A stretch of DNA of 64,000 bases from Halieaceae bacterium UBA4452 (lineage in GTDB: Bacteria; Pseudomonadota; Gammaproteobacteria; Pseudomonadales; Halieaceae): contig DGPA01000019.1 of NCBI GenBank assembly GCA_002389505.1, forward strand, positions 8-64,007. Direction: 5' to 3'. Under the pieces are notes generated by a model. It ran no database searches, had not been told where the DNA came from, and was given only the letters and a program-made list of their open reading frames with translations. This document shows positions 33,241-54,985 of the stretch, in pieces. A program made the translations under genes and the position numbers. The stretch's first letter is position 1, and the number at the start of each line of letters is the position of its first letter.

Positions 33241-34430
33241 ACGAGACCGATGTCATTATTGCAGGGGCGGGAATTGCCGGGTTAAGTCTGGCCGCGTTGT
33301 TATCTCAGCGAGGCTTGCGAGTCGTTGTTGTAGATGGCGCTCCCCACCCTGATCGCCTGGGGCCATTGGGCGCCGGCGTAAATGATTGGGATCGTCGCGT
33401 CAGCGCGCTGACGCCTGCTTCAAGCGCTTTATTGACCGACATAGGCGCATGGGCCGCTATCGTGGAGAAGCGAAGTGCCGCCTATGACAGTATGCGCGTT
33501 TGGGACGCCGAGGGCACTGGCGCCGTTGCCTTTACCGCGTTCGAGGTTGGCGCGCCAGACTTAGGCCATATTGTTGAAAATCGAATAACGGTTGACGCAT
33601 TACTCGGCGTGCTCGAGCGCGAAAAGACTGTAGCCGTGCGCTGGAATGATCCCATTATCGCCGTTAATAACCACCATACCGCAGGGGTGCAAGTGACCAC
33701 TGAGAACGGCGATCGTGTGACGGCCCCTCTGCTGGTGGGTGCTGATGGCGCCAAGTCAATCGTTCGAAGGCAGCTGGGTTTCCGCGTTCGACAGTGGTCA
33801 TATGAGCAGAGCGCTATTGTCGCGACGATCGCACTTGAGCAGCATCATAATGCCAGGTGCTATCAAGCCTTTTTAGCCACCGGACCGCTGGCCTTGTTAC
33901 CCTTGGCTGATCCCTTGTTATGCTCCATCGTCTGGTCTCTCGACACCTCTTCGGTGGATGCCGTTCGGGCGTTAACAGATGCGGATTTTGTCCTGGCCTT
34001 GAACAGGGCACTGGGTGATCAAGCGCCCCCCGTTGCTAAGGTGGGCGCTCGAGCTATGTTTCCACTACAGCAATGCCATGCTGTCGATTATGTCCAGACC
34101 AGAGTGGCCTTGGTAGCTGATGCTGCGCACGCAATACACCCCTTAGCTGGGCAGGGCATCAATTTGGGTTTGGCTGATGTTGGCGTGCTTGCAGATGAAA
34201 TTGAGCAGGCGACAAGTGCGCAGGTAGATTGGGGTGACTTAGCGGTGCTCCGCCGTTATCAGCGTCGTCGGAAAACCGAAAATTTGGCGACAATGGCAGC
34301 CATGGAAGGCTTTAAGCGTGGCTTTGGCAGTGGCAATCCAGCGCTTCGTGTGTTGCGCAATGCGGGCCTATCGTGGGTAAATAAAAGTCCACACATTAAG
34401 CGATGGCTGACAATGCAGGCGCTCAGTTAG
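33237..34430 (+). CDS. ubiI: UbiI/VisC-type ubiquinone-biosynthesis flavin hydroxylase
   Basis: VIIAGAGIAGLSLA and VADAAHAIHPLAGQGINLG. ATG 33237 overlaps the ubiH stop (ATGA). The ORF-track start 33189 is probably too long. Confidence 0.8.
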   Translation: MNETDVIIAGAGIAGLSLAALLSQRGLRVVVVDGAPHPDRLGPLGAGVNDWDRRVSALTPASSALLTDIGAWAAIVEKRSAAYDSMRVWDAEGTGAVAFTAFEVGAPDLGHIVENRITVDALLGVLEREKTVAVRWNDPIIAVNNHHTAGVQVTTENGDRVTAPLLVGADGAKSIVRRQLGFRVRQWSYEQSAIVATIALEQHHNARCYQAFLATGPLALLPLADPLLCSIVWSLDTSSVDAVRALTDADFVLALNRALGDQAPPVAKVGARAMFPLQQCHAVDYVQTRVALVADAAHAIHPLAGQGINLGLADVGVLADEIEQATSAQVDWGDLAVLRRYQRRRKTENLATMAAMEGFKRGFGSGNPALRVLRNAGLSWVNKSPHIKRWLTMQALS

Positions 34431-34466
34431 GCAACAGCAAGGACACCCGTAGAGACGATTTATCTA

Positions 34467-36074
34467 ATGAAGTGCACGCTCAGAAAAATGTCAGGATATT
34501 TGTACGGCTCGGTTCAGCCCGCAATCGCTATTTCAGTGGAAAAAGAGCCGCTAACTGATAACAAGCGGCGTGATGGCTTAACCGAATGTGCAGTCCTCTT
34601 TTCAAACATGTGTGAAATGCCAGAGCGGCCATTGTTTGATAACGTGGGGGCTGCCACTCCCAATGAATTTCTGACCCATCTTGTTGAGTCGCTGTGTGCA
34701 TTAAATACGCATTGCGGTGACCAGCGTTTCACCCCTATTAAATATTTAGACGAAGAAAACTATGAAACCTATATTGTTCCGACGGTTTCACCAGACCTTG
34801 CTGCGCTCAATTTTTCGTCGCTGACCACCTTTCTTAAGAAACATAAAGATCACTTAACGCTGGAAGCAGTCAAGGGTTTTGTCAACACTCTACGTGCTAA
34901 AAATAGGGTTTTTCTGCCGCTAGGCACCAACGCGATGAACTTCATTTTTGCGGCCATAGCCCGAAAAATTCCTTTTAAGATACTGTCCAACCGGCATATT
35001 ATTTTTGGTTATGGAAGTAGCTCTGTAATTTTTATGAGCTCAGTGACGTCTAGAGAAAATGCAGTTGGTGTGGACCTTGCCGACAGTAAACTGTTAACTA
35101 AAACATTATTGGGGCTGGCAGAATTGCCTGTGGCAAAGGGATTTGGGATTGATTCTATTGATAGTGCTGTAAAGCGAGCAAGTGAGATAGGTTATCCGGT
35201 TGTGTTGAAACCTGTGTGTGGCCGTCAGGGGCGTGGTGTTATCCCTGGTATCGCGTCTGAAGACGCCTTAAGGACTGCTTATTCACGTGTTAGGGCGACA
35301 GGCGAAAATAAGCTGCTTATAGAAAAGCACATATCAGGTGAGTGCCACCGAATTACTGTTCTCAACGGGAAAATAATCAATGCCTTTGAGATGCAATCAG
35401 CTCGCGTTGTCGGGGATGGTAAGTCATCTGTCAGCGATCTAATTGAGCAGGAGAATCTTCGACCGAGCCGTAATGTCGCGATCAGTTCAATGTGCAAGAT
35501 CATAGTAGATAATGACGTTATGGATATCCTGAAACAGCAGGGGATAGAGCTTGCTACGGTTCCTGAACAAGGCGATACGGTTTTTCTGGCCTTCGTTTCC
35601 AATGAGAGCAGAGGCGGAATGTATTATGAATGTACAGCGCGCTTGCATCCAGAAAATGCCAGGTTATGTATCGCAGTTGCTGAGACAATGAACCTATCGT
35701 TAAGTGGAATTGACTTTATATCAGAAGACGCATCAAAGCCGTGGTTCGAAAACAACGCCATGATTTGTGAGGTCAATGCGCAGCCGCAGCTAGGAGAGTT
35801 TGGTGAAGACAGCGAGATATTTTTCGCTGTTTTAGACTCAGCGCAGCCGATGGCGGTTCCCATAAATCTGACAATATCGAACGATGAAACCCATCAATCA
35901 TCTGGGCTCTTTAATAAGACCCTCAATGCAATAGATCTGTATCTCACTCCTGCTGAGGTGTTTCGCAATGGCTGTCCCGCACAGTACTTTACTACGCTTA
36001 CGATAGCTGAAAATGTGCCAATCAGTGTTCGTCGATCACTTATAGATGCGCTGGTGAGCATCGAGCCTTTATAG
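34467..36074 (+). CDS. Cyanophycin-synthetase-like ATP-grasp protein (N + G domains only, no Mur-ligase-like M domain)
   Basis: 535 aa. It is collinear with the CphA1 N-terminal half: ARKIPFKIL..FGYG, DSKLLTK, GYPVVLKPVCGRQGRGV, LLIEKHISGECHRITVLNGK, ARVVGDGKSSVSDLIEQEN, SNESRGG, LHPEN, SLSGIDFI, MICEVNAQPQ. No GTNGKT P-loop follows. The gene is markedly AT-richer than its flanks. The start codon has no obvious SD. Confidence 0.7.
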   Translation: MKCTLRKMSGYLYGSVQPAIAISVEKEPLTDNKRRDGLTECAVLFSNMCEMPERPLFDNVGAATPNEFLTHLVESLCALNTHCGDQRFTPIKYLDEENYETYIVPTVSPDLAALNFSSLTTFLKKHKDHLTLEAVKGFVNTLRAKNRVFLPLGTNAMNFIFAAIARKIPFKILSNRHIIFGYGSSSVIFMSSVTSRENAVGVDLADSKLLTKTLLGLAELPVAKGFGIDSIDSAVKRASEIGYPVVLKPVCGRQGRGVIPGIASEDALRTAYSRVRATGENKLLIEKHISGECHRITVLNGKIINAFEMQSARVVGDGKSSVSDLIEQENLRPSRNVAISSMCKIIVDNDVMDILKQQGIELATVPEQGDTVFLAFVSNESRGGMYYECTARLHPENARLCIAVAETMNLSLSGIDFISEDASKPWFENNAMICEVNAQPQLGEFGEDSEIFFAVLDSAQPMAVPINLTISNDETHQSSGLFNKTLNAIDLYLTPAEVFRNGCPAQYFTTLTIAENVPISVRRSLIDALVSIEPL

Positions 36075-36141
36075 TTCATCAGCTGAAGGTGATGTAGAGT
36101 CAGACGACAAACCTGTTAGGGTCAGGTGATGGTCTTTGGGT

Positions 36142-37938
36142 TTATCGGCTGCTCTGCCCACTGCCTGTGACGGCTTTGCGTGTGGTCAGTAGATTCTCAG
36201 GCGTATCATCCAAATAGCGGTAGGTCGTGAACCCAAAAAACATCTCGTGCATGGTTTGCAATCCGAAACGCACAGGCATGTTGGGGTTAGGGTTATAGGG
36301 GTTGCGATCAGAGTTATCCATAGCACCTTCGGCAATAAGGCGCGTTCCCGCGGGAAGAAGCACAGGCTCTTGCAGCTGATAATTAAACTGCCAGTTGAAG
36401 TCATACTTCGGCACCGATAACAGCACTTCCGAACTACCGTCGGGGTACTCGGCAATATATTTCATATGCTTGCCGCGGTAGTGCATGTGGGGCATTAAGC
36501 CATAGAGCAGGGCATCGCGTTCAAATTCCTGCACGCCCTCAAGCGGGTGCTCTTTGGTATTGGGGGGTATCAAAAATCGACGCTGACCCGCAGAGCCCCC
36601 AGACATAACGTACTTGGGAGGTTGGTCGTGTAGATAAATGCCAATCTGGGTTTCGTCGGTCGTTGCTTTCCCTGTGGTGGTGTAGTGCATTTGCAATAAC
36701 AGGCTGGAACCGGCGCGAATCAGTGCGCCGGAATTGTCCCGCCAAATATCGGGTTGACGTCCTGGGGCAAAGCCGCCAATCGAGTCACCGAGGGCGCCAT
36801 CGTCACTAGTAGTTCCGGCAGTACGATCAGCAGGACTCGAGAGGTAGGTGATGATGTGGTGCAGTACTTTGCGGTCCCCAGGGACGTATTCAACGGCCCG
36901 CAGCCAAACGTCTTGGTCAAGATTTAAGGGTACGGGTACGTAACGGTAATCAATGACCCCAGTTGCGGGTATTTTCTGAGCGGGCACTTTCAGGACAATA
37001 TCGGGCTCACCCATGGAAAACGTGGCATCGCTAAATGTCAGCGCTTTGAGCGGATCCGCCTGATCATCGCCCGGTGCCCCGGCATCAATCCAGTGCACCA
37101 AGGTTTGGAGTTCCTCAACGGACAGGCCCGCGGCCTCTTGCACCGGACGACCAATATGGGGGTCGAGCTGACCCGGAGGCATGCGCCGTGTCAGCAGTAC
37201 TTCTTTCATCATGCGTGACCAACCTTGCACCATGGCGTGCTCGGTCATGGCCCAGGGACCAATGCCACCCACCTGATGGCATTTCACACAGTGCTGTTCG
37301 AGTAGCGGGGCAATGTCGGTGGAATAGCTTGGAGGTGCCTTTGCGTGGCTTTCCTTTGCTGGAAAAGTAATGAGGCAGCCTGGCGCGTCGGGGACGTTGT
37401 CGGGCAGGAGAGTTCCCGCAAGGTAGGCGTCAAGGGCATCGCGCAAGTAGTGGTTTTCAGCTTCGGGCTTTTGCGTTTCATAGTGCAGCCGGTCATCTAC
37501 AGGCCCGCGATAAACAATCTCTTGAGTCTGGGGGTTGAGTATAAAAACTTCAGACGTGCGATCAACGCCCAGTGATTCAGCAATTAGCTGGGTTTCATCG
37601 ATGAGTATGGGAAAGTCATAACTAAAATGCACAGCCTCGGCGACAATACTCGCGCGGTTGTCTTGGGGTTGGGGGTTTAGCATAAAAAATTGTACGCCCC
37701 GATCGGTGTATTCGTCACGAATGGCGCGTAGCTGGGGTACGCTGTTACGAACAATCTGGCAGCCGTTGCCCTGCACAAAAATAACAATAGCCTTTTGATC
37801 GCCATACCAGCTTAGCTTATGGTGTTTGCCGGTTTGGTCGAGCAACGCGAAATCACCGATGCGCTGCGACGGTGTAGCCTGAACGAGTGGTCCCGCCATG
37901 ATACCCATTGCCAATGCCAGAACCGCGAACTTTTTCAT
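36142..37938 (-). CDS. Secreted tri-domain redox protein: thioredoxin-like (redoxin) + heme c (CxxCH) + copper type II monooxygenase-like domain
   Basis: 598 aa with signal peptide MKKFAVLALAMGIMAGPLVQA. There is a redoxin-like N-domain with a single Cys (GNGCQIV) and a CVKCH heme-binding motif at residues 217-221. His/Met spacing is PHM/DBH-like: HH 360-361, H418, HMH 484-486, M563/566. GGGAG SD upstream of the ATG. Confidence 0.6.
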   Translation of the reverse strand: MKKFAVLALAMGIMAGPLVQATPSQRIGDFALLDQTGKHHKLSWYGDQKAIVIFVQGNGCQIVRNSVPQLRAIRDEYTDRGVQFFMLNPQPQDNRASIVAEAVHFSYDFPILIDETQLIAESLGVDRTSEVFILNPQTQEIVYRGPVDDRLHYETQKPEAENHYLRDALDAYLAGTLLPDNVPDAPGCLITFPAKESHAKAPPSYSTDIAPLLEQHCVKCHQVGGIGPWAMTEHAMVQGWSRMMKEVLLTRRMPPGQLDPHIGRPVQEAAGLSVEELQTLVHWIDAGAPGDDQADPLKALTFSDATFSMGEPDIVLKVPAQKIPATGVIDYRYVPVPLNLDQDVWLRAVEYVPGDRKVLHHIITYLSSPADRTAGTTSDDGALGDSIGGFAPGRQPDIWRDNSGALIRAGSSLLLQMHYTTTGKATTDETQIGIYLHDQPPKYVMSGGSAGQRRFLIPPNTKEHPLEGVQEFERDALLYGLMPHMHYRGKHMKYIAEYPDGSSEVLLSVPKYDFNWQFNYQLQEPVLLPAGTRLIAEGAMDNSDRNPYNPNPNMPVRFGLQTMHEMFFGFTTYRYLDDTPENLLTTRKAVTGSGQSSR

Positions 37939-51418: not shown

Positions 51419-52951
51419 ATGCGGCAGCAAACGGATGGCAACCTTGGACGGCGCCTGTGCGCGGGCGTATGGCTATCTTTGTCTGCTGTGTCTGCTGCAG
51501 ACACGCTGATTGTCAATGCGTTAGTGCTAGACGGTACGGGCGCTCCGGCTCAACAGAGCAGTATTCGCATAAGCAATGACCGGATCGTAGCGGTCGGTCC
51601 ATTGACGGTTTTGGCCACCGATACAGTATTCGATGCTCAGGGACTCGCAGTCGCTCCGGGATTTATCGATACTCATAGTCATGCAGATGAGCATTTGCTT
51701 TCACAGCGCGATGCTTGGCCAAAAATTACGCAAGGTATCACCACCGTGGTAGTGGGGCAGGACGGAAGCTCTCCTTATCCCCTCAACGGGTTTTTCGAAG
51801 CCCTGAGTCAGACGCCAGCTAAGGTCAACGTGGCAGCGTATGTGGGTCACAATACCTTGCGTGACGCGGTTATGGGGAAAAACGCTAAACGTGAGGCTAG
51901 CCCTGCGCACATGCAGTCAATGGCACGCTTGCTTGACTCAGAGCTTGCATCGGGCGCTTTAGGACTATCGACGGGACTCGAATATGAGCCGGGTATTTAT
52001 AGTTCTACAGCAGAAGTGATTTTCTTGGCGGCGCATACCGCTCAGCGGGGTGGTCGATACAGTAGCCATCTACGCAGCGAGGATCGGTGGTTTGAGGACA
52101 GCATCGAGGAGATTATTGAGATCGGGCGTGTCACCGGTATGCCCGTACACATTGCGCATCTTAAATTGGCCATGAAGCGGCTTTGGGGTAGCGCGCCTGC
52201 GCTACTACAGCGACTCGATAGTGCGCGGGCATCGGGTGTCGATATCACCGCCGATATTTATCCGTATACCTATTGGCAATCTCATATGATGGTATTGTTG
52301 CCCGAGCGAGATCCTCTCGACAGCGACGCTATCGATCTCGTCATGCGAGAGCTCGCCCCTCCTGAGGGCATTATTTTTACGCATTTTCCGGTTGAGCCTA
52401 ACTACGTCGGTAAAACCCTGACCGACGTGGCTGCGTTGCGAGGCGAAAGTCCCGGAGAGGCCTTCTCCCAGCTAGCCCAACTGTCTATTAAGCACGAGTT
52501 ACAGACCGGTCAGTCCGGGGATATGATTATTGGAACCAGTATGGCTGAAGGCGATCTTCAACTGCTAATGGATTGGCCACATACCAATATTTGTACCGAT
52601 GGCGGTCTGCAGGATCGCCACCCGCGTGGTGCTGGCAGCTTTCCTAGAGTATTGGGCCATTACGCGCGAGCGCTGGGAAAGCTAACGTTAGAAGCGGCGG
52701 TGTATAAAATGACCGGGTTGCCTGCCGAGCATTTGGGTCTCGAGACCCGCGGGATCATTAAGGCAGGTTATATGGCCGACCTAGTGATTTTTGACCCGGA
52801 CACCATCATTGATCGAGCGACCACTGCGGAGCCGTTTTTAGCTGCGCAGGGCATCAGCGACGTTTGGGTTAATGGGCAGCGCGTCATGGCGCAGGGTCGC
52901 CAAACGACGACCTACCCCGGGCATGTTATTCGTCGAGCGAGTACGCCCTAG
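51419..52951 (+). CDS. N-acyl-D-amino-acid deacylase (D-aminoacylase) family
   Basis: GFIDTHSHAD metal motif and overall D-aminoacylase length. ATG 51419 is preceded by GGGAGGA. The N-terminus RQQTDGNLGRRLCAGVWLSLSAVSAA looks like a signal peptide (possibly Tat-type). Confidence 0.8.
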   Translation: MRQQTDGNLGRRLCAGVWLSLSAVSAADTLIVNALVLDGTGAPAQQSSIRISNDRIVAVGPLTVLATDTVFDAQGLAVAPGFIDTHSHADEHLLSQRDAWPKITQGITTVVVGQDGSSPYPLNGFFEALSQTPAKVNVAAYVGHNTLRDAVMGKNAKREASPAHMQSMARLLDSELASGALGLSTGLEYEPGIYSSTAEVIFLAAHTAQRGGRYSSHLRSEDRWFEDSIEEIIEIGRVTGMPVHIAHLKLAMKRLWGSAPALLQRLDSARASGVDITADIYPYTYWQSHMMVLLPERDPLDSDAIDLVMRELAPPEGIIFTHFPVEPNYVGKTLTDVAALRGESPGEAFSQLAQLSIKHELQTGQSGDMIIGTSMAEGDLQLLMDWPHTNICTDGGLQDRHPRGAGSFPRVLGHYARALGKLTLEAAVYKMTGLPAEHLGLETRGIIKAGYMADLVIFDPDTIIDRATTAEPFLAAQGISDVWVNGQRVMAQGRQTTTYPGHVIRRASTP

Positions 52952-53967
52952 TGGCGATTGATTTGCCAGTGCCACACTTGCTGTTTCTTGGTGACATCAC
53001 CAATCCCTTAGATGCCAAAACCGCCATGGGTATACGGGATTGGCGGCCAGAGCACTGCGTGGGTCAATGGCGCCTACCGGGATGTACCGTCGATCTTGGA
53101 TTGCCCACTATGACGCCAGCCAGCGCTGCTATGGCCGGGGCTCAGAGCGTGCTGATGGGTGTCGCGCCTGCTGGGGGTGTGCTATGCCCCTCTTGGATAG
53201 CTCCTTTACGTGCGGCATTGGCCGCTGGGCTCAGTATTGTCAGTGGGCTACACCAGCCGTTAACAGCAGTGCCGGCACTCGTTGAAGCGGCACAAGCCGC
53301 GCAACAAACACTCATTGATATACGCATTGCCCCCAATGATATCCCCATCGCCAGCGGCAGGCGTAGAGCTGGAAAGCGCTTACTGACTGTCGGTACAGAT
53401 TGTTGTGTCGGAAAAAAATACACGGCGTTAGCTATCACCAATGCGTTGCGCCAGCAGGGCCATAAAGCAACGTTTCGCGCGACGGGACAAACCGGCATTA
53501 TGATATCTGGCGGGGGTATTCCGATGGATGCGGTGGTCTCAGATTTTCTGTCGGGTGCCGCGGAGCTGCTCAGTCCCGATGCCGATGACGATCATTGGGA
53601 TGTCATTGAGGGTCAGGGTTCTTTATTTCATCCAGCTTACGCGGCGGTGACCCTGGGGCTGCTTCACGGTAGTCAAGCGGATGCATTGGTGCTCTGCCAT
53701 AGCGCAGGCAGGGCGGCGATTGATGAATATGAAGCCTTCGTTATACCTGACTTAGTCACCTGTATCTCTCGCTATCAGCAGGCAGCGGCCCTCACCAACC
53801 ACGGCGCACGGGTGATCGGTGTGAGTCTTAATACCTCAGACATGGCATCTAATGATGCGCAGCAGGTTTGTGCGCAGGTGTCTCGGGAAACGGGTTTGCC
53901 GTGTCTCGATCCGCTCAGGGATGGCCTTGCGCCGTTCATTGCGGCACTGAGCGGACGTACCGGATGA
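52951..53967 (+). CDS. dgcN: DUF1611 family protein (D-glutamate N-acetyltransferase DgcN-like)
   Basis: 338 aa with the P-loop-like motif LLTVGTDCCVGKKYTAL characteristic of DUF1611. It sits next to an enolase-superfamily epimerase, the usual DUF1611 neighbour. The GTG start overlaps the upstream stop (TAGTG). Confidence 0.65.
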   Translation: MAIDLPVPHLLFLGDITNPLDAKTAMGIRDWRPEHCVGQWRLPGCTVDLGLPTMTPASAAMAGAQSVLMGVAPAGGVLCPSWIAPLRAALAAGLSIVSGLHQPLTAVPALVEAAQAAQQTLIDIRIAPNDIPIASGRRRAGKRLLTVGTDCCVGKKYTALAITNALRQQGHKATFRATGQTGIMISGGGIPMDAVVSDFLSGAAELLSPDADDDHWDVIEGQGSLFHPAYAAVTLGLLHGSQADALVLCHSAGRAAIDEYEAFVIPDLVTCISRYQQAAALTNHGARVIGVSLNTSDMASNDAQQVCAQVSRETGLPCLDPLRDGLAPFIAALSGRTG

Positions 53968-54010
53968 CACTATCGACGTTGAGGTGCTATGAATCATATC
54001 GGGGGTTACC

Positions 54011-54985
54011 TTGAAACTCACGGTGGAGACGCGCTCATGGGCCATGATGGCTCCGTTTGTCACTGCCGGAGAAACGGTCCATAGCATTGACGTGCTCTAC
54101 GTTGAGCTCAGCGCTGGCGGCCTCAAGGGTTGTGCTGAAACAATGGGCGTCGATTACTTGGGTGAAACGACCGCCTCAATGATGGCAGAGCTTTCCCAAC
54201 TCAGTGATTTAACCCTGTCAAATTTAACGCCAGAGCATGTGCAAACCCTGCTTCCCCCCGGTGGCAGTCGCAATGGACTGGACTGTGCGCTGTGGGATTT
54301 ACGGGCAAAACAGTGCCATGGGGGTATTTCGTCCCTCTTGGGGCGAGCAATGAATCCTATGGAAACCCTTTATACGCTGTCGCTAGATGAGCCTGAGAAC
54401 ATGGCTAGAAGTGCGCATCATGCAGCGCATCTCACCCAGCTTAAACTCAAGCTCAATGGCCATAAAGCCCTCGAGTGCTTGCAAGCGGTCCGAGCAGCGC
54501 GGCCGGAGGCAAGTATTGTCATCGACGCTAACGGTAGCTGGTCCGAAGCGTTGTTACTCGATCTGGGCGACGATTTGGCGCGCCTGCGGGTCGCGCTTTT
54601 GGAGCAGCCCCTTGCCGCCGATCTGGATCACTGCTTGCAACATCTCAACTACCCTGTGCCTCTGTGTGCTGACGAATCCTGTCAAGCGAGTGAAGATCTT
54701 GAGCGTGTTGCTGACTGTTATCAGGCCATCAATATTAAACTGGATAAATGTGGTGGCTTGACCGAAGCGCTGCTAATGCGGGACTGGTGCCAGAAATACG
54801 ATAAGCAGATGATGGTCGGTAACATGTTGGGGTCATCACTCGCCATGGCGCCCGCTTGTGTGATAGCCCAGACGGCGGATTTTGTCGATTTAGACGGTCC
54901 ACTATGGCAATCCGACGATGTTGCTTATCCATTACAGATTGTCGATGGATGCATCCAGCCCCCTGCGCCTGAGCTGTGGGGGTGA
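54011..54985 (+). CDS. Enolase-superfamily (MR/MLE) racemase/epimerase: dipeptide epimerase or N-acetyl-D-glutamate racemase (DgcA-like)
   Basis: 324 aa with the KxK motif (LKLKLNG), metal ligands VIDANGSW / LLEQP / CADES, and a second catalytic Lys in INIKLDKCGG. TTG start. Confidence 0.7.
   Translation: MKLTVETRSWAMMAPFVTAGETVHSIDVLYVELSAGGLKGCAETMGVDYLGETTASMMAELSQLSDLTLSNLTPEHVQTLLPPGGSRNGLDCALWDLRAKQCHGGISSLLGRAMNPMETLYTLSLDEPENMARSAHHAAHLTQLKLKLNGHKALECLQAVRAARPEASIVIDANGSWSEALLLDLGDDLARLRVALLEQPLAADLDHCLQHLNYPVPLCADESCQASEDLERVADCYQAINIKLDKCGGLTEALLMRDWCQKYDKQMMVGNMLGSSLAMAPACVIAQTADFVDLDGPLWQSDDVAYPLQIVDGCIQPPAPELWG

Follow-up and report, generated by a model that had tools for sequence, protein, structure and literature searches.

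The window analysed here, a 64,000-nucleotide stretch of DNA from Halieaceae bacterium UBA4452 (positions 8 to 64,007 of contig DGPA01000019.1, assembly GCA_002389505.1), carries a gene for a 535-amino-acid relative of cyanophycin synthetase (CphA) that has no Mur-ligase-like M domain. The explanation that we favour, with confidence a little better than even, is that the gene encodes a CphA-derived ATP-dependent ligase, made up of an N domain, an ATP-grasp (G) domain and a vestige of the M domain, which would work at a single site on substrates other than those of cyanophycin, and that the gene forms a horizontally acquired single-gene islet. The protein represents a small, previously undescribed family of a kind that is already known, the CphA-like ATP-grasp ligases. 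It falls outside both CphA1 and CphA2 while being predicted to work like their G domain.

The open reading frame (ORF) begins with an ATG, and this start is backed by an N-terminus, MKxxxxxxxGYxYG, that is common to the family. All peptide segments quoted in an earlier note on this DNA, which was made from the sequence letters alone, are present in the 535-residue translation. The match to the CphA1 G domain that it described was borne out: residues 151-442 align with residues 162-457 of SuCphA1 (Synechocystis) at E = 1.6e-49, and TIGR02068, the cyanophycin synthetase model, gives 243 bits across positions 157-446 of its 862. The curated cut-off of that model is 850 bits and only its G-domain part is covered, so the protein is not a full-length CphA1. 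It does have the marks of an ATP-grasp enzyme, namely two ATP-binding Lys, an adenine-region Glu, and an Mg-binding acidic residue together with E-x-N, and its fold matches ATP-grasp structures.

Searches against PDB with the single sequence ranked CphA1 and CphA2 first (E from 1e-41 to 1e-49), followed by GshF (1e-17 to 1e-20) and by RimK, LysX and Ddl (1e-2 or weaker). With a family profile the corresponding values were 1e-65 to 1e-68, 1e-38 to 1e-41, and 1e-6 or weaker except for one Ddl at 5e-12; CphA2 and CphA1 were equally similar to the family. A Foldseek search with the full model (predicted local distance difference test score, pLDDT, 79) gave CphA1 at 3e-33, then CphA2, GshF at 1e-23 and LysX, RimK and Ddl at about 1e-9. 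It is hardly credible, then, that the protein is an ordinary RimK-, GshB- or Ddl-type ligase that resembles CphA by chance. RimK is the top Pfam match (42 bits, above the gathering score, which CPSase_L_D2 also exceeds), and TIGR00768 reaches 66 bits, its cut-off being 143. Yet CphA is ahead by at least 35 orders of magnitude in the sequence search and at least 20 in the fold search, and the protein has both a G-omega insertion and, by fold, a CphA-type N domain. The RimK/GshB/Ddl identity was effectively rejected on the sequence, profile and fold ranking; the earlier note had named it as the outcome that would overturn the CphA assignment. Next best after CphA are GshF/GshAB and N-acetylglutaminylglutamine synthetase (TIGR03103; E from 1e-32 to 1e-41), which belong to the same ATP-grasp subgroup and share the G-omega insertion. 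Unlike the window protein, these enzymes have a GshA or GNAT partner and no CphA-type N domain, and they form dipeptides, not polymers.

Residues 1-150 and 443-535 matched no Pfam or NCBIfam model (PF18921 included for the N domain), and direct profile-profile comparison of these two regions with the N and M domains of CphA1 was negative. The predicted kinship of the N domain with that of CphA is seen only through its fold and through a chain of profiles that passes by intermediates. When the N domain was modelled alone with AlphaFold (pLDDT 83), Foldseek returned only CphA1 and CphA2 chains at template-modelling (TM) scores of 0.51-0.60, all other PDB hits having TM <0.32. The fold-match probability to the CphA chains was 0.75-1.0, and at least 0.87 in all but one chain. 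In the profile chain, the family N domain connects to a sister group of longer proteins with a probability of 94%, and the sister group connects to CphA1 residues 3-567 with a probability of 100%. The hhalign alignment of the family with the sister group spans 5-529 (probability 100), and the family profile is collinear with Acinetobacter baylyi CphA1 from profile position 65. The collinearity with CphA claimed in the earlier note holds for the G domain by sequence and is supported for the N domain by fold and profile chain, but the N domain has no direct sequence similarity to CphA1. The Cx19HxxEH metallopeptidase site that is present in 83% of CphA1 N domains (PMC9262961) was not found in the family N domain. 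Family-invariant motifs are GYxYGxxQPS, CGDQRFTPI and PTLS in the N domain and GxPxQYF in the C-terminal region.

In the same profile chain the C-terminal ~90 residues align with the opening ~110 residues of the M-domain core but lack its P-loop segment, and by this alignment they are a vestige of the start of the M domain. The earlier note had treated the tail as simply the end of the protein, about 85 residues beyond the ATP-grasp part; 94 residues follow Q441. Its statement that a functional M domain is missing was confirmed. Neither a Mur-ligase Pfam match nor a GTNGKT P-loop was found in the 535-residue protein, and tblastn with five CphA1 M domains gave no match in the 64-kb window (best E 0.32). 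A frameshifted M domain, downstream or elsewhere in the window, and a second cphA-like gene in the window were considered and none was found.

The earlier note concluded from the missing M domain that the protein cannot make cyanophycin by the known mechanism. Loss of M is not sufficient for that conclusion, because CphA2 polymerises beta-Asp-Arg although, next to N and G, it has only a truncated and inactive M domain; G is its sole catalytic domain (PMC10273328). The residue pattern, on the other hand, does argue against cyanophycin. Residues were audited in 23 family members, 33 CphA1 proteins, 16 shorter betaproteobacterial CphA-like proteins and 26 sister-group proteins, with roles taken from TeCphA1/SuCphA1 (PMC9427784) and CphA2 (PMC10273328). 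K208, K248, E286, R295, D416, E435 and N437 are invariant in 23/23 family members, the window copy included; the alignment thus shows retention of the ATP-grasp catalytic residues, whose loss the earlier note had allowed for. N379 and S381, the equivalents of CphA1 N394 and S396, are also retained.

With this core intact, the enzyme is probably active as an ATP-grasp ligase. ATP would be held by K208, K248 and E286, and Mg2+ by D416, E435 and N437. An acyl-phosphate, formed by phosphorylation of a substrate carboxylate, would be stabilised by R295 and the P-loop, and an amine near the G-omega large loop (N379, S381, R382) would attack it to form an amide bond. Retention of a CphA-type N domain, the chain tether in CphA enzymes, suggests that a peptide-like or polymeric acceptor may be extended repeatedly, as it is by CphA2.

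The residues that bind substrate in CphA1 follow a different pattern. In that enzyme His267 is an essential P-loop residue of the G domain, Arg458 contacts the alpha-carboxylate and Arg323 the beta-carboxylate of the incoming Asp, Glu215 holds the Arg side chain of cyanophycin, and R309 holds the acyl carboxylate and gamma-phosphate (PMC9427784); the CphA2 counterpart of Glu215 is Asp197/212 (PMC10273328). From this CphA1 specificity set the family keeps R309 and N394/S396, whereas H267 and R458 are replaced and E215 and R323 are not conserved. The His267 position is Gln (Q254 in the window protein) and the Arg458 position Gly (G443) in 23/23 family members. Arg is found at the Arg323 position in 12/23 (R12/M5/L4/H1/I1), the window protein having M309, and the Glu215 position varies (S8 T3 G3 Q3 D1), with D203 in the window protein. 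At the large-loop Thr397 position 21/23 members have Arg (R382), and the Ala454 and Gly456 positions are both Gln throughout the family (Q439 and Q441). Because the Arg-side-chain, Asp-binding and catalytic-His residues of CphA1 are replaced, the substrates of the family probably differ from those of CphA1 and CphA2.

The same audit bears on the product suggested in the earlier note, a poly-Asp-like chain. An enzyme that builds poly-aspartate, or another homo-amino-acid chain, onto a peptide C-terminus would do just what the CphA1 G domain does in backbone extension, and the N domain, N379 and S381 are in place for it. Both Asp-carboxylate arginines have been lost, however (R323 to M309 here, R458 to Gly family-wide), and we consider this product very unlikely.

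CphA2 offers a closer parallel. The window protein is built like CphA2 (PDB 7TA5, 8FXH/8FXI): its N domain is of the CphA type by fold, catalysis could plausibly take place only in the G domain, and what remains of the M domain is non-functional. Several residues that are essential in CphA2 have counterparts here, R292/R308 in R295 and, for StCphA2, N393 in N379 and S395 in S381, and D203 lies at the GcCphA2 D197 position. That the G domain alone makes cyanophycin, or a polymer resembling it, from beta-Asp-Arg or a related beta-aspartyl dipeptide is nevertheless quite unlikely. The acidic residue for the Arg side chain (D197) is not conserved in the family, and the His of the GcCphA2 P-loop GHKGIG has no equivalent, the family sequence xEEQGRG (CGRQGRG in the window protein) lacking His at both the CphA1 and the CphA2 position. 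Where CphA has the Ser/Thr of its 'GPS' motif, the family has an invariant Asn ('GTN'). CphA2 S148/T163, which like D197/D212 proved essential on mutagenesis, corresponds to the invariant N155. The window protein is also ~90-110 residues shorter than CphA2, with a much smaller M vestige, and the family, which is mobile and not cyanobacterial, is no closer to CphA2, reported as a cyanobacterial enzyme, than to CphA1. No cyanophycinase or isoaspartyl dipeptidase family was found within 10 kb on either side of the gene or among 20 further scanned window ORFs, in agreement with the earlier note, and none was found beside homologues at the loci examined. CphA1 itself (TIGR02068; PDB 7LG5, 7WAC) remains among the best matches, collinear through N by fold and through G, and shares the ATP and Mg residues, R309 and the large-loop N394/S396. 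The window protein differs from it in having no M domain, GTNGKT P-loop or Cx19HxxEH site, in addition to the substitutions described above.

A word-indexed search found 22 full-length homologues (513-548 amino acids, 34-42% identity, 97-100% coverage) that are conserved end to end, and an exhaustive profile search of 1.84 billion representatives gave ~30 clusters (50% identity) that a sharp drop in score sets apart. Below this drop lies the sister group, a much larger set of 580-720-residue proteins that also have N and G. The hosts of the family are marine Gamma- and Alphaproteobacteria. Nearly all members are unnamed metagenomic proteins, the few database names being 'acetate--CoA ligase family protein', 'D-alanine-D-alanine ligase-like ATP-grasp enzyme' and 'cyanophycin synthetase'. 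A literature search covering M-less, CphA-like, CphA3 and amidoligase proteins turned up nothing on the family; 'CphA3' denotes a beta-lactamase. PADLOC defence models matched the protein at noise level only (E 0.009 or weaker, <13 bits) and IMG/VR contained no relatives, and an origin in a defence system or phage was rejected on these results.

In a neighbour-joining (NJ) tree of G domains the family is monophyletic with 99.5% bootstrap, so the M-less homologues of this length form a clade, as the earlier note had proposed to examine. The window protein is the earliest branch of the family, and the nearest outgroups are the sister-group proteins P0025 and P0047. A clade combining the family with the sister group appears in the tree but with 27% bootstrap, and we do not claim it. 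Sister-group proteins (such as P0025, P0142 and P0158) match the CphA1 model to position ~570-598 of 871, which corresponds to N, G and a truncated M. They are homologous to the family throughout N, G and the C-terminal region, have the CEVNAQPQ-G motif in common with it and likewise lack His267. They differ in that their truncated M is longer, 26/26 keep R323, the family motifs GDQRF, PTLS and GxPxQYF are missing, and they often lie in glycan-biosynthesis neighbourhoods, whereas the family genes are mobile singletons. A further type (P0062, P0065, P0067 and similar), comprising betaproteobacterial proteins of 718-727 residues named 'cyanophycin synthetase', has a CphA1-type N domain with HxxEH and keeps His267, lacks the M P-loop and four G-omega large-loop residues, and has Gly at the Arg323 position. 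By the tree these proteins form a separate truncated CphA lineage (100% bootstrap).

The gene was acquired horizontally as a single-gene islet, a conclusion that is well supported because it is absent from the loci of 80 relatives, its family has a GC (guanine plus cytosine) content of about 40-45% in any host, and mobile genes flank it elsewhere. The window host is a member of the Halieaceae near Luminiphilus, with a UbiI that is at most 58% identical to that of any GTDB species representative. At the 80 closest related ubiI loci among GTDB representatives the CphA-like gene was found in none (0/80). Synteny with every relative ends at ubiI, and for this reason a clean empty site cannot be demonstrated. 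In composition, the gene has the lowest GC (0.454; mean 0.539 +/- 0.026) and the lowest third-position GC (GC3, 0.442; mean 0.555 +/- 0.033) of the 43 long ORFs in the window, with z-scores of about -3.2 and -3.4, respectively. The GC of the span 34431-36141 is 0.455, compared with 0.542 and 0.537 in the 10 kb on each side. The dip noted earlier is therefore real but smaller than implied by the hand count, which averaged about 41% in the gene.

Elsewhere, family genes have ~40-45% GC in hosts of 40-62% GC and lie below their own flanks in 14/17 loci; only L093, L099 and L102, on contigs of ~40% GC, are composition-matched. Resolvase, integrase or transposase genes adjoin the family gene in at least seven other loci. 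They comprise serine recombinases of the Hin/resolvase type (Resolvase + HTH_7; L090:21-764, L095:4680-5372, L005:11855-12490 and a fragment at L006:109-447), tyrosine integrases (L005, L096, L170), IS3-type transposases (L005, L098) and an HTH_Tnp_1 transposase (L097). The recombinases of L090 and L095 lie 126 bp upstream of the family gene on the same strand, and the two genes may constitute a two-gene mobile or invertible unit. The family copy of L170 (8001-9612) is frameshifted into 368 + 186 residues; the island around it contains three Phage_integrase genes, numerous small ORFs that run in one direction, and genes for a TPR protein and a sulfotransferase. The ygfB-pepP-ubiH block of the window is also present in L102 (1-10722, ~40% GC, gammaproteobacterial). 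There the family gene, 37% identical and host-like in GC, flanks the block on the other side, following 5-formyltetrahydrofolate cyclo-ligase and rpiA, and the locus may be a native-type host or an independent insertion.

At the window locus itself, where the earlier note saw no flanking direct repeats, tRNA or recombinase, direct or inverted repeats flanking the islet were at chance level, no Rfam element was found at the islet, and the sole tRNA detected lies 12 kb away. Neither the 10 kb on each flank nor a further 20 window ORFs that were scanned yielded a recombinase, the remainder of the window being unscreened. An integron attC or cassette boundary was rejected. The spacers downstream of the family gene are 67 bp long in both the window and L007, but their sequences are unrelated and L007 carries an ordinary terminator there, so the equal length is a coincidence. 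Because no sigma-70-like promoter was predicted in the 36-bp spacer that follows the ubiI stop at 34430, it is possible that the gene is co-transcribed with ubiH-ubiI. The sole terminator-like feature of the 67-bp downstream spacer is a weak hairpin. Positions of these features are collected in Table 1.

Table 1. Features of the low-GC islet and its CphA-like ORF, in window coordinates
Feature	Position	Strand	Remark
Low-GC islet, ubiI spacer through spacer before the 598-residue gene	34431-36141	.	GC 0.455 vs 0.54 in flanks
Spacer after ubiI stop, 36 bp	34431-34466	+	No sigma-70-like promoter predicted
ORF, 535 amino acids plus stop	34467-36074	+	Family N-terminus supports start
N domain, residues 1-150, beta-beta-alpha-alpha-beta-beta-alpha-alpha	34467-34916	+	Predicted CphA N-domain fold, without HxxEH
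Family motif GYLYGSVQPA (N domain)	34494-34523	+	
Family motif GDQRF (N domain)	34716-34730	+	
Family motif PTVS (N domain)	34779-34790	+	
G domain, residues 151-442, ATP-grasp fold with G-omega insertion (as in CphA, GshF, Ngg)	34917-35792	+	
K208, equivalent to CphA1 K220 (ATP beta-phosphate)	35088-35090	+	Family-invariant
K248 (CphA1 K261, ATP alpha-phosphate), then P-loop VCGRQGRG including Q254	35208-35237	+	
R295, equivalent to CphA1 R309 (acyl carboxylate and gamma-phosphate)	35349-35351	+	Family-invariant
M309 at the CphA1 R323 position	35391-35393	+	Family: R12/M5/L4/H1/I1
G-omega large loop VSNESRGG including N379, S381, R382	35595-35618	+	
Mg-binding E435-V-N437, then family-specific A-Q-P-Q-L-G	35769-35795	+	
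C-terminal region, residues 443-535, putative N-terminal vestige of the M-domain core, P-loop region deleted	35793-36071	+	
Family motif GCPAQYF (C-terminal region)	35970-35990	+	
Spacer before the convergent gene, 67 bp, weak terminator-like hairpin at 36111-36127	36075-36141	+	

The surroundings of the sister group raise another function, the attachment of amino acids or short peptides to the carboxylate of a cell-surface glycan (uronic acid, teichuronopeptide-like), which we regard as rather unlikely for the family. GT1 and GT4 glycosyltransferases, methyltransferases, the Wzt O-antigen ABC transporter ATPase and TupA-like ATP-grasp proteins recur as neighbours in this wider M-less group, and the fusion protein P0163 joins a GT4-type glycosyltransferase to N+G. 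Some family genes also lie among such genes: L007, L095 and L170 have TPR-GT41, sulfotransferase and glycosyltransferase genes nearby, with TPR-GT41 in L007 and L095 and a sulfotransferase in L170, and longer M-less CphA-like paralogues (598-614 residues; L094:2248-4092, L006:5579-7375, L007:1406-3226) stand directly downstream of the family gene or 3-8 kb from it. However, this support stems mainly from the sister group and not from the 535-residue family, the window locus and most family loci are without glycan genes, and the association may merely reflect shared flexible genomic islands. Two other fusions with a CphA-like G were observed: P0133 combines an AMP-binding adenylation domain with two ATP-grasp modules, and P0138 an LPG_synthase_C-like domain with three ATP-grasp modules and an acylphosphatase.

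Between family members the ratio of nonsynonymous to synonymous substitution rates (dN/dS, NG86) is 0.08-0.55, which indicates purifying selection. Within the host population, a cluster of 47 variants at >=90% identity (P0001) includes the window ORF as its A39T variant (P0277), and the listed variants are full length, with 535 residues or with 528 when called from Met8. On all eight contigs examined (L001-L004, L175-L178) the ORF is intact and of full length and lies at the same locus; the islet is now fixed at this one locus in the population. When five of the loci were compared with the window, six variant codons were found in the CphA-like gene: A39T, L114F, D206H, Q254R, I303V and Y492H. 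A39T, D206H and Q254R were found in every combination, which suggests recombination or recurrent mutation. D206H and Q254R lie beside the active site.

Several points weigh against an active ligase with non-cyanophycin substrates. All six variant codons are nonsynonymous and none is synonymous, compared with 10 synonymous and 6 nonsynonymous in four neighbouring genes together (Fisher one-sided p = 0.012, on small numbers). Q254R, in the variant on most contigs, alters a family-invariant residue, as does N155T in another variant. The window copy is among the most divergent members, its 13 deviations at near-invariant columns (E252G, K206D and Y294H among them) being joint highest in the family. 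In CphA1, H267A abolishes G-domain activity, and catalysis with Gln at that position is an assumption. D203, acidic at the Glu215 position, leaves binding of a cationic side chain possible for the window copy. The polymerase role of the N domain is drawn from CphA alone, and no conserved partner gene that would hint at a substrate was found across 17 family loci or 67 sister-group loci.

Some of these points could also mean that the gene is a dispensable passenger in this host, under relaxed constraint and decaying or already inactive, even if the family works elsewhere. The polymorphism contrast with the neighbours, the changes at invariant residues, the 13 deviations, the missing promoter and strong terminator, and the frameshifted copy in L170 would all fit such a state. 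We think it unlikely, as the ORF is intact on 8/8 contigs, the listed cluster variants are full length, and the window copy has all family-invariant catalytic residues. Arg or Lys at the His267 position is also found in CphA1 and sister-group proteins, and the nonsynonymous excess near the active site equally fits diversifying selection; the 0/6 polymorphism is consistent with either process.

Taken with this possible selection, the re-tooled active site can be read more boldly than as a ligase with altered substrates. The protein might be a single-gene, primer-tethering polymerase that makes a new non-ribosomal amino-acid polymer or oligopeptide, a re-tooled CphA descendant carried as a mobile cassette among marine Proteobacteria, with D206H and Q254R as signs of ongoing selection. 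The re-tooling would consist of Gln for the P-loop His, the new large-loop Arg, and Q-P-Q-L-G in place of A-P-G-F-R. We put this forward tentatively.

The convergent neighbour (36142-37938, - strand) encodes 598 residues, of which only the first ~150 match AhpC/TSA-Redoxin and the other ~440 are unassigned, and contains a CVKCH motif of the CxxCH haem-c type. This gene, whose GC is host-like, and the genes downstream for an MMPL transporter and a PQQ dehydrogenase are, like the CphA-like gene, missing at ubiI in 80/80 relatives. Farther away, adjoining genes at 52951-54985 (+ strand) encode a DUF1611 protein (338 residues) and an enolase-superfamily MR_MLE protein (324 residues).

To our knowledge, the polymerisation of amino acids on a tethered chain by an ATP-grasp enzyme is well understood only for the CphA enzymes; cyanophycin synthetases are of interest for green polymer production. 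The weight of the present finding is limited, since orphan ATP-grasp families are numerous and constraint on this copy may be relaxed. The analysis also defines the larger sister group of N, G and truncated M, often found in glycan loci and mis-annotated as 'cyanophycin synthetase' or 'acetate--CoA ligase family'. For the Halieaceae, the islet is a clear example of the acquisition of a single gene that has become fixed in an abundant marine population. The family itself appears to be a naturally minimised M-less relative of CphA, with its core intact and its specificity residues altered. It would indicate to what extent the CphA scaffold tolerates reduction, and is a candidate source of a new amide-linked product or biopolymer.

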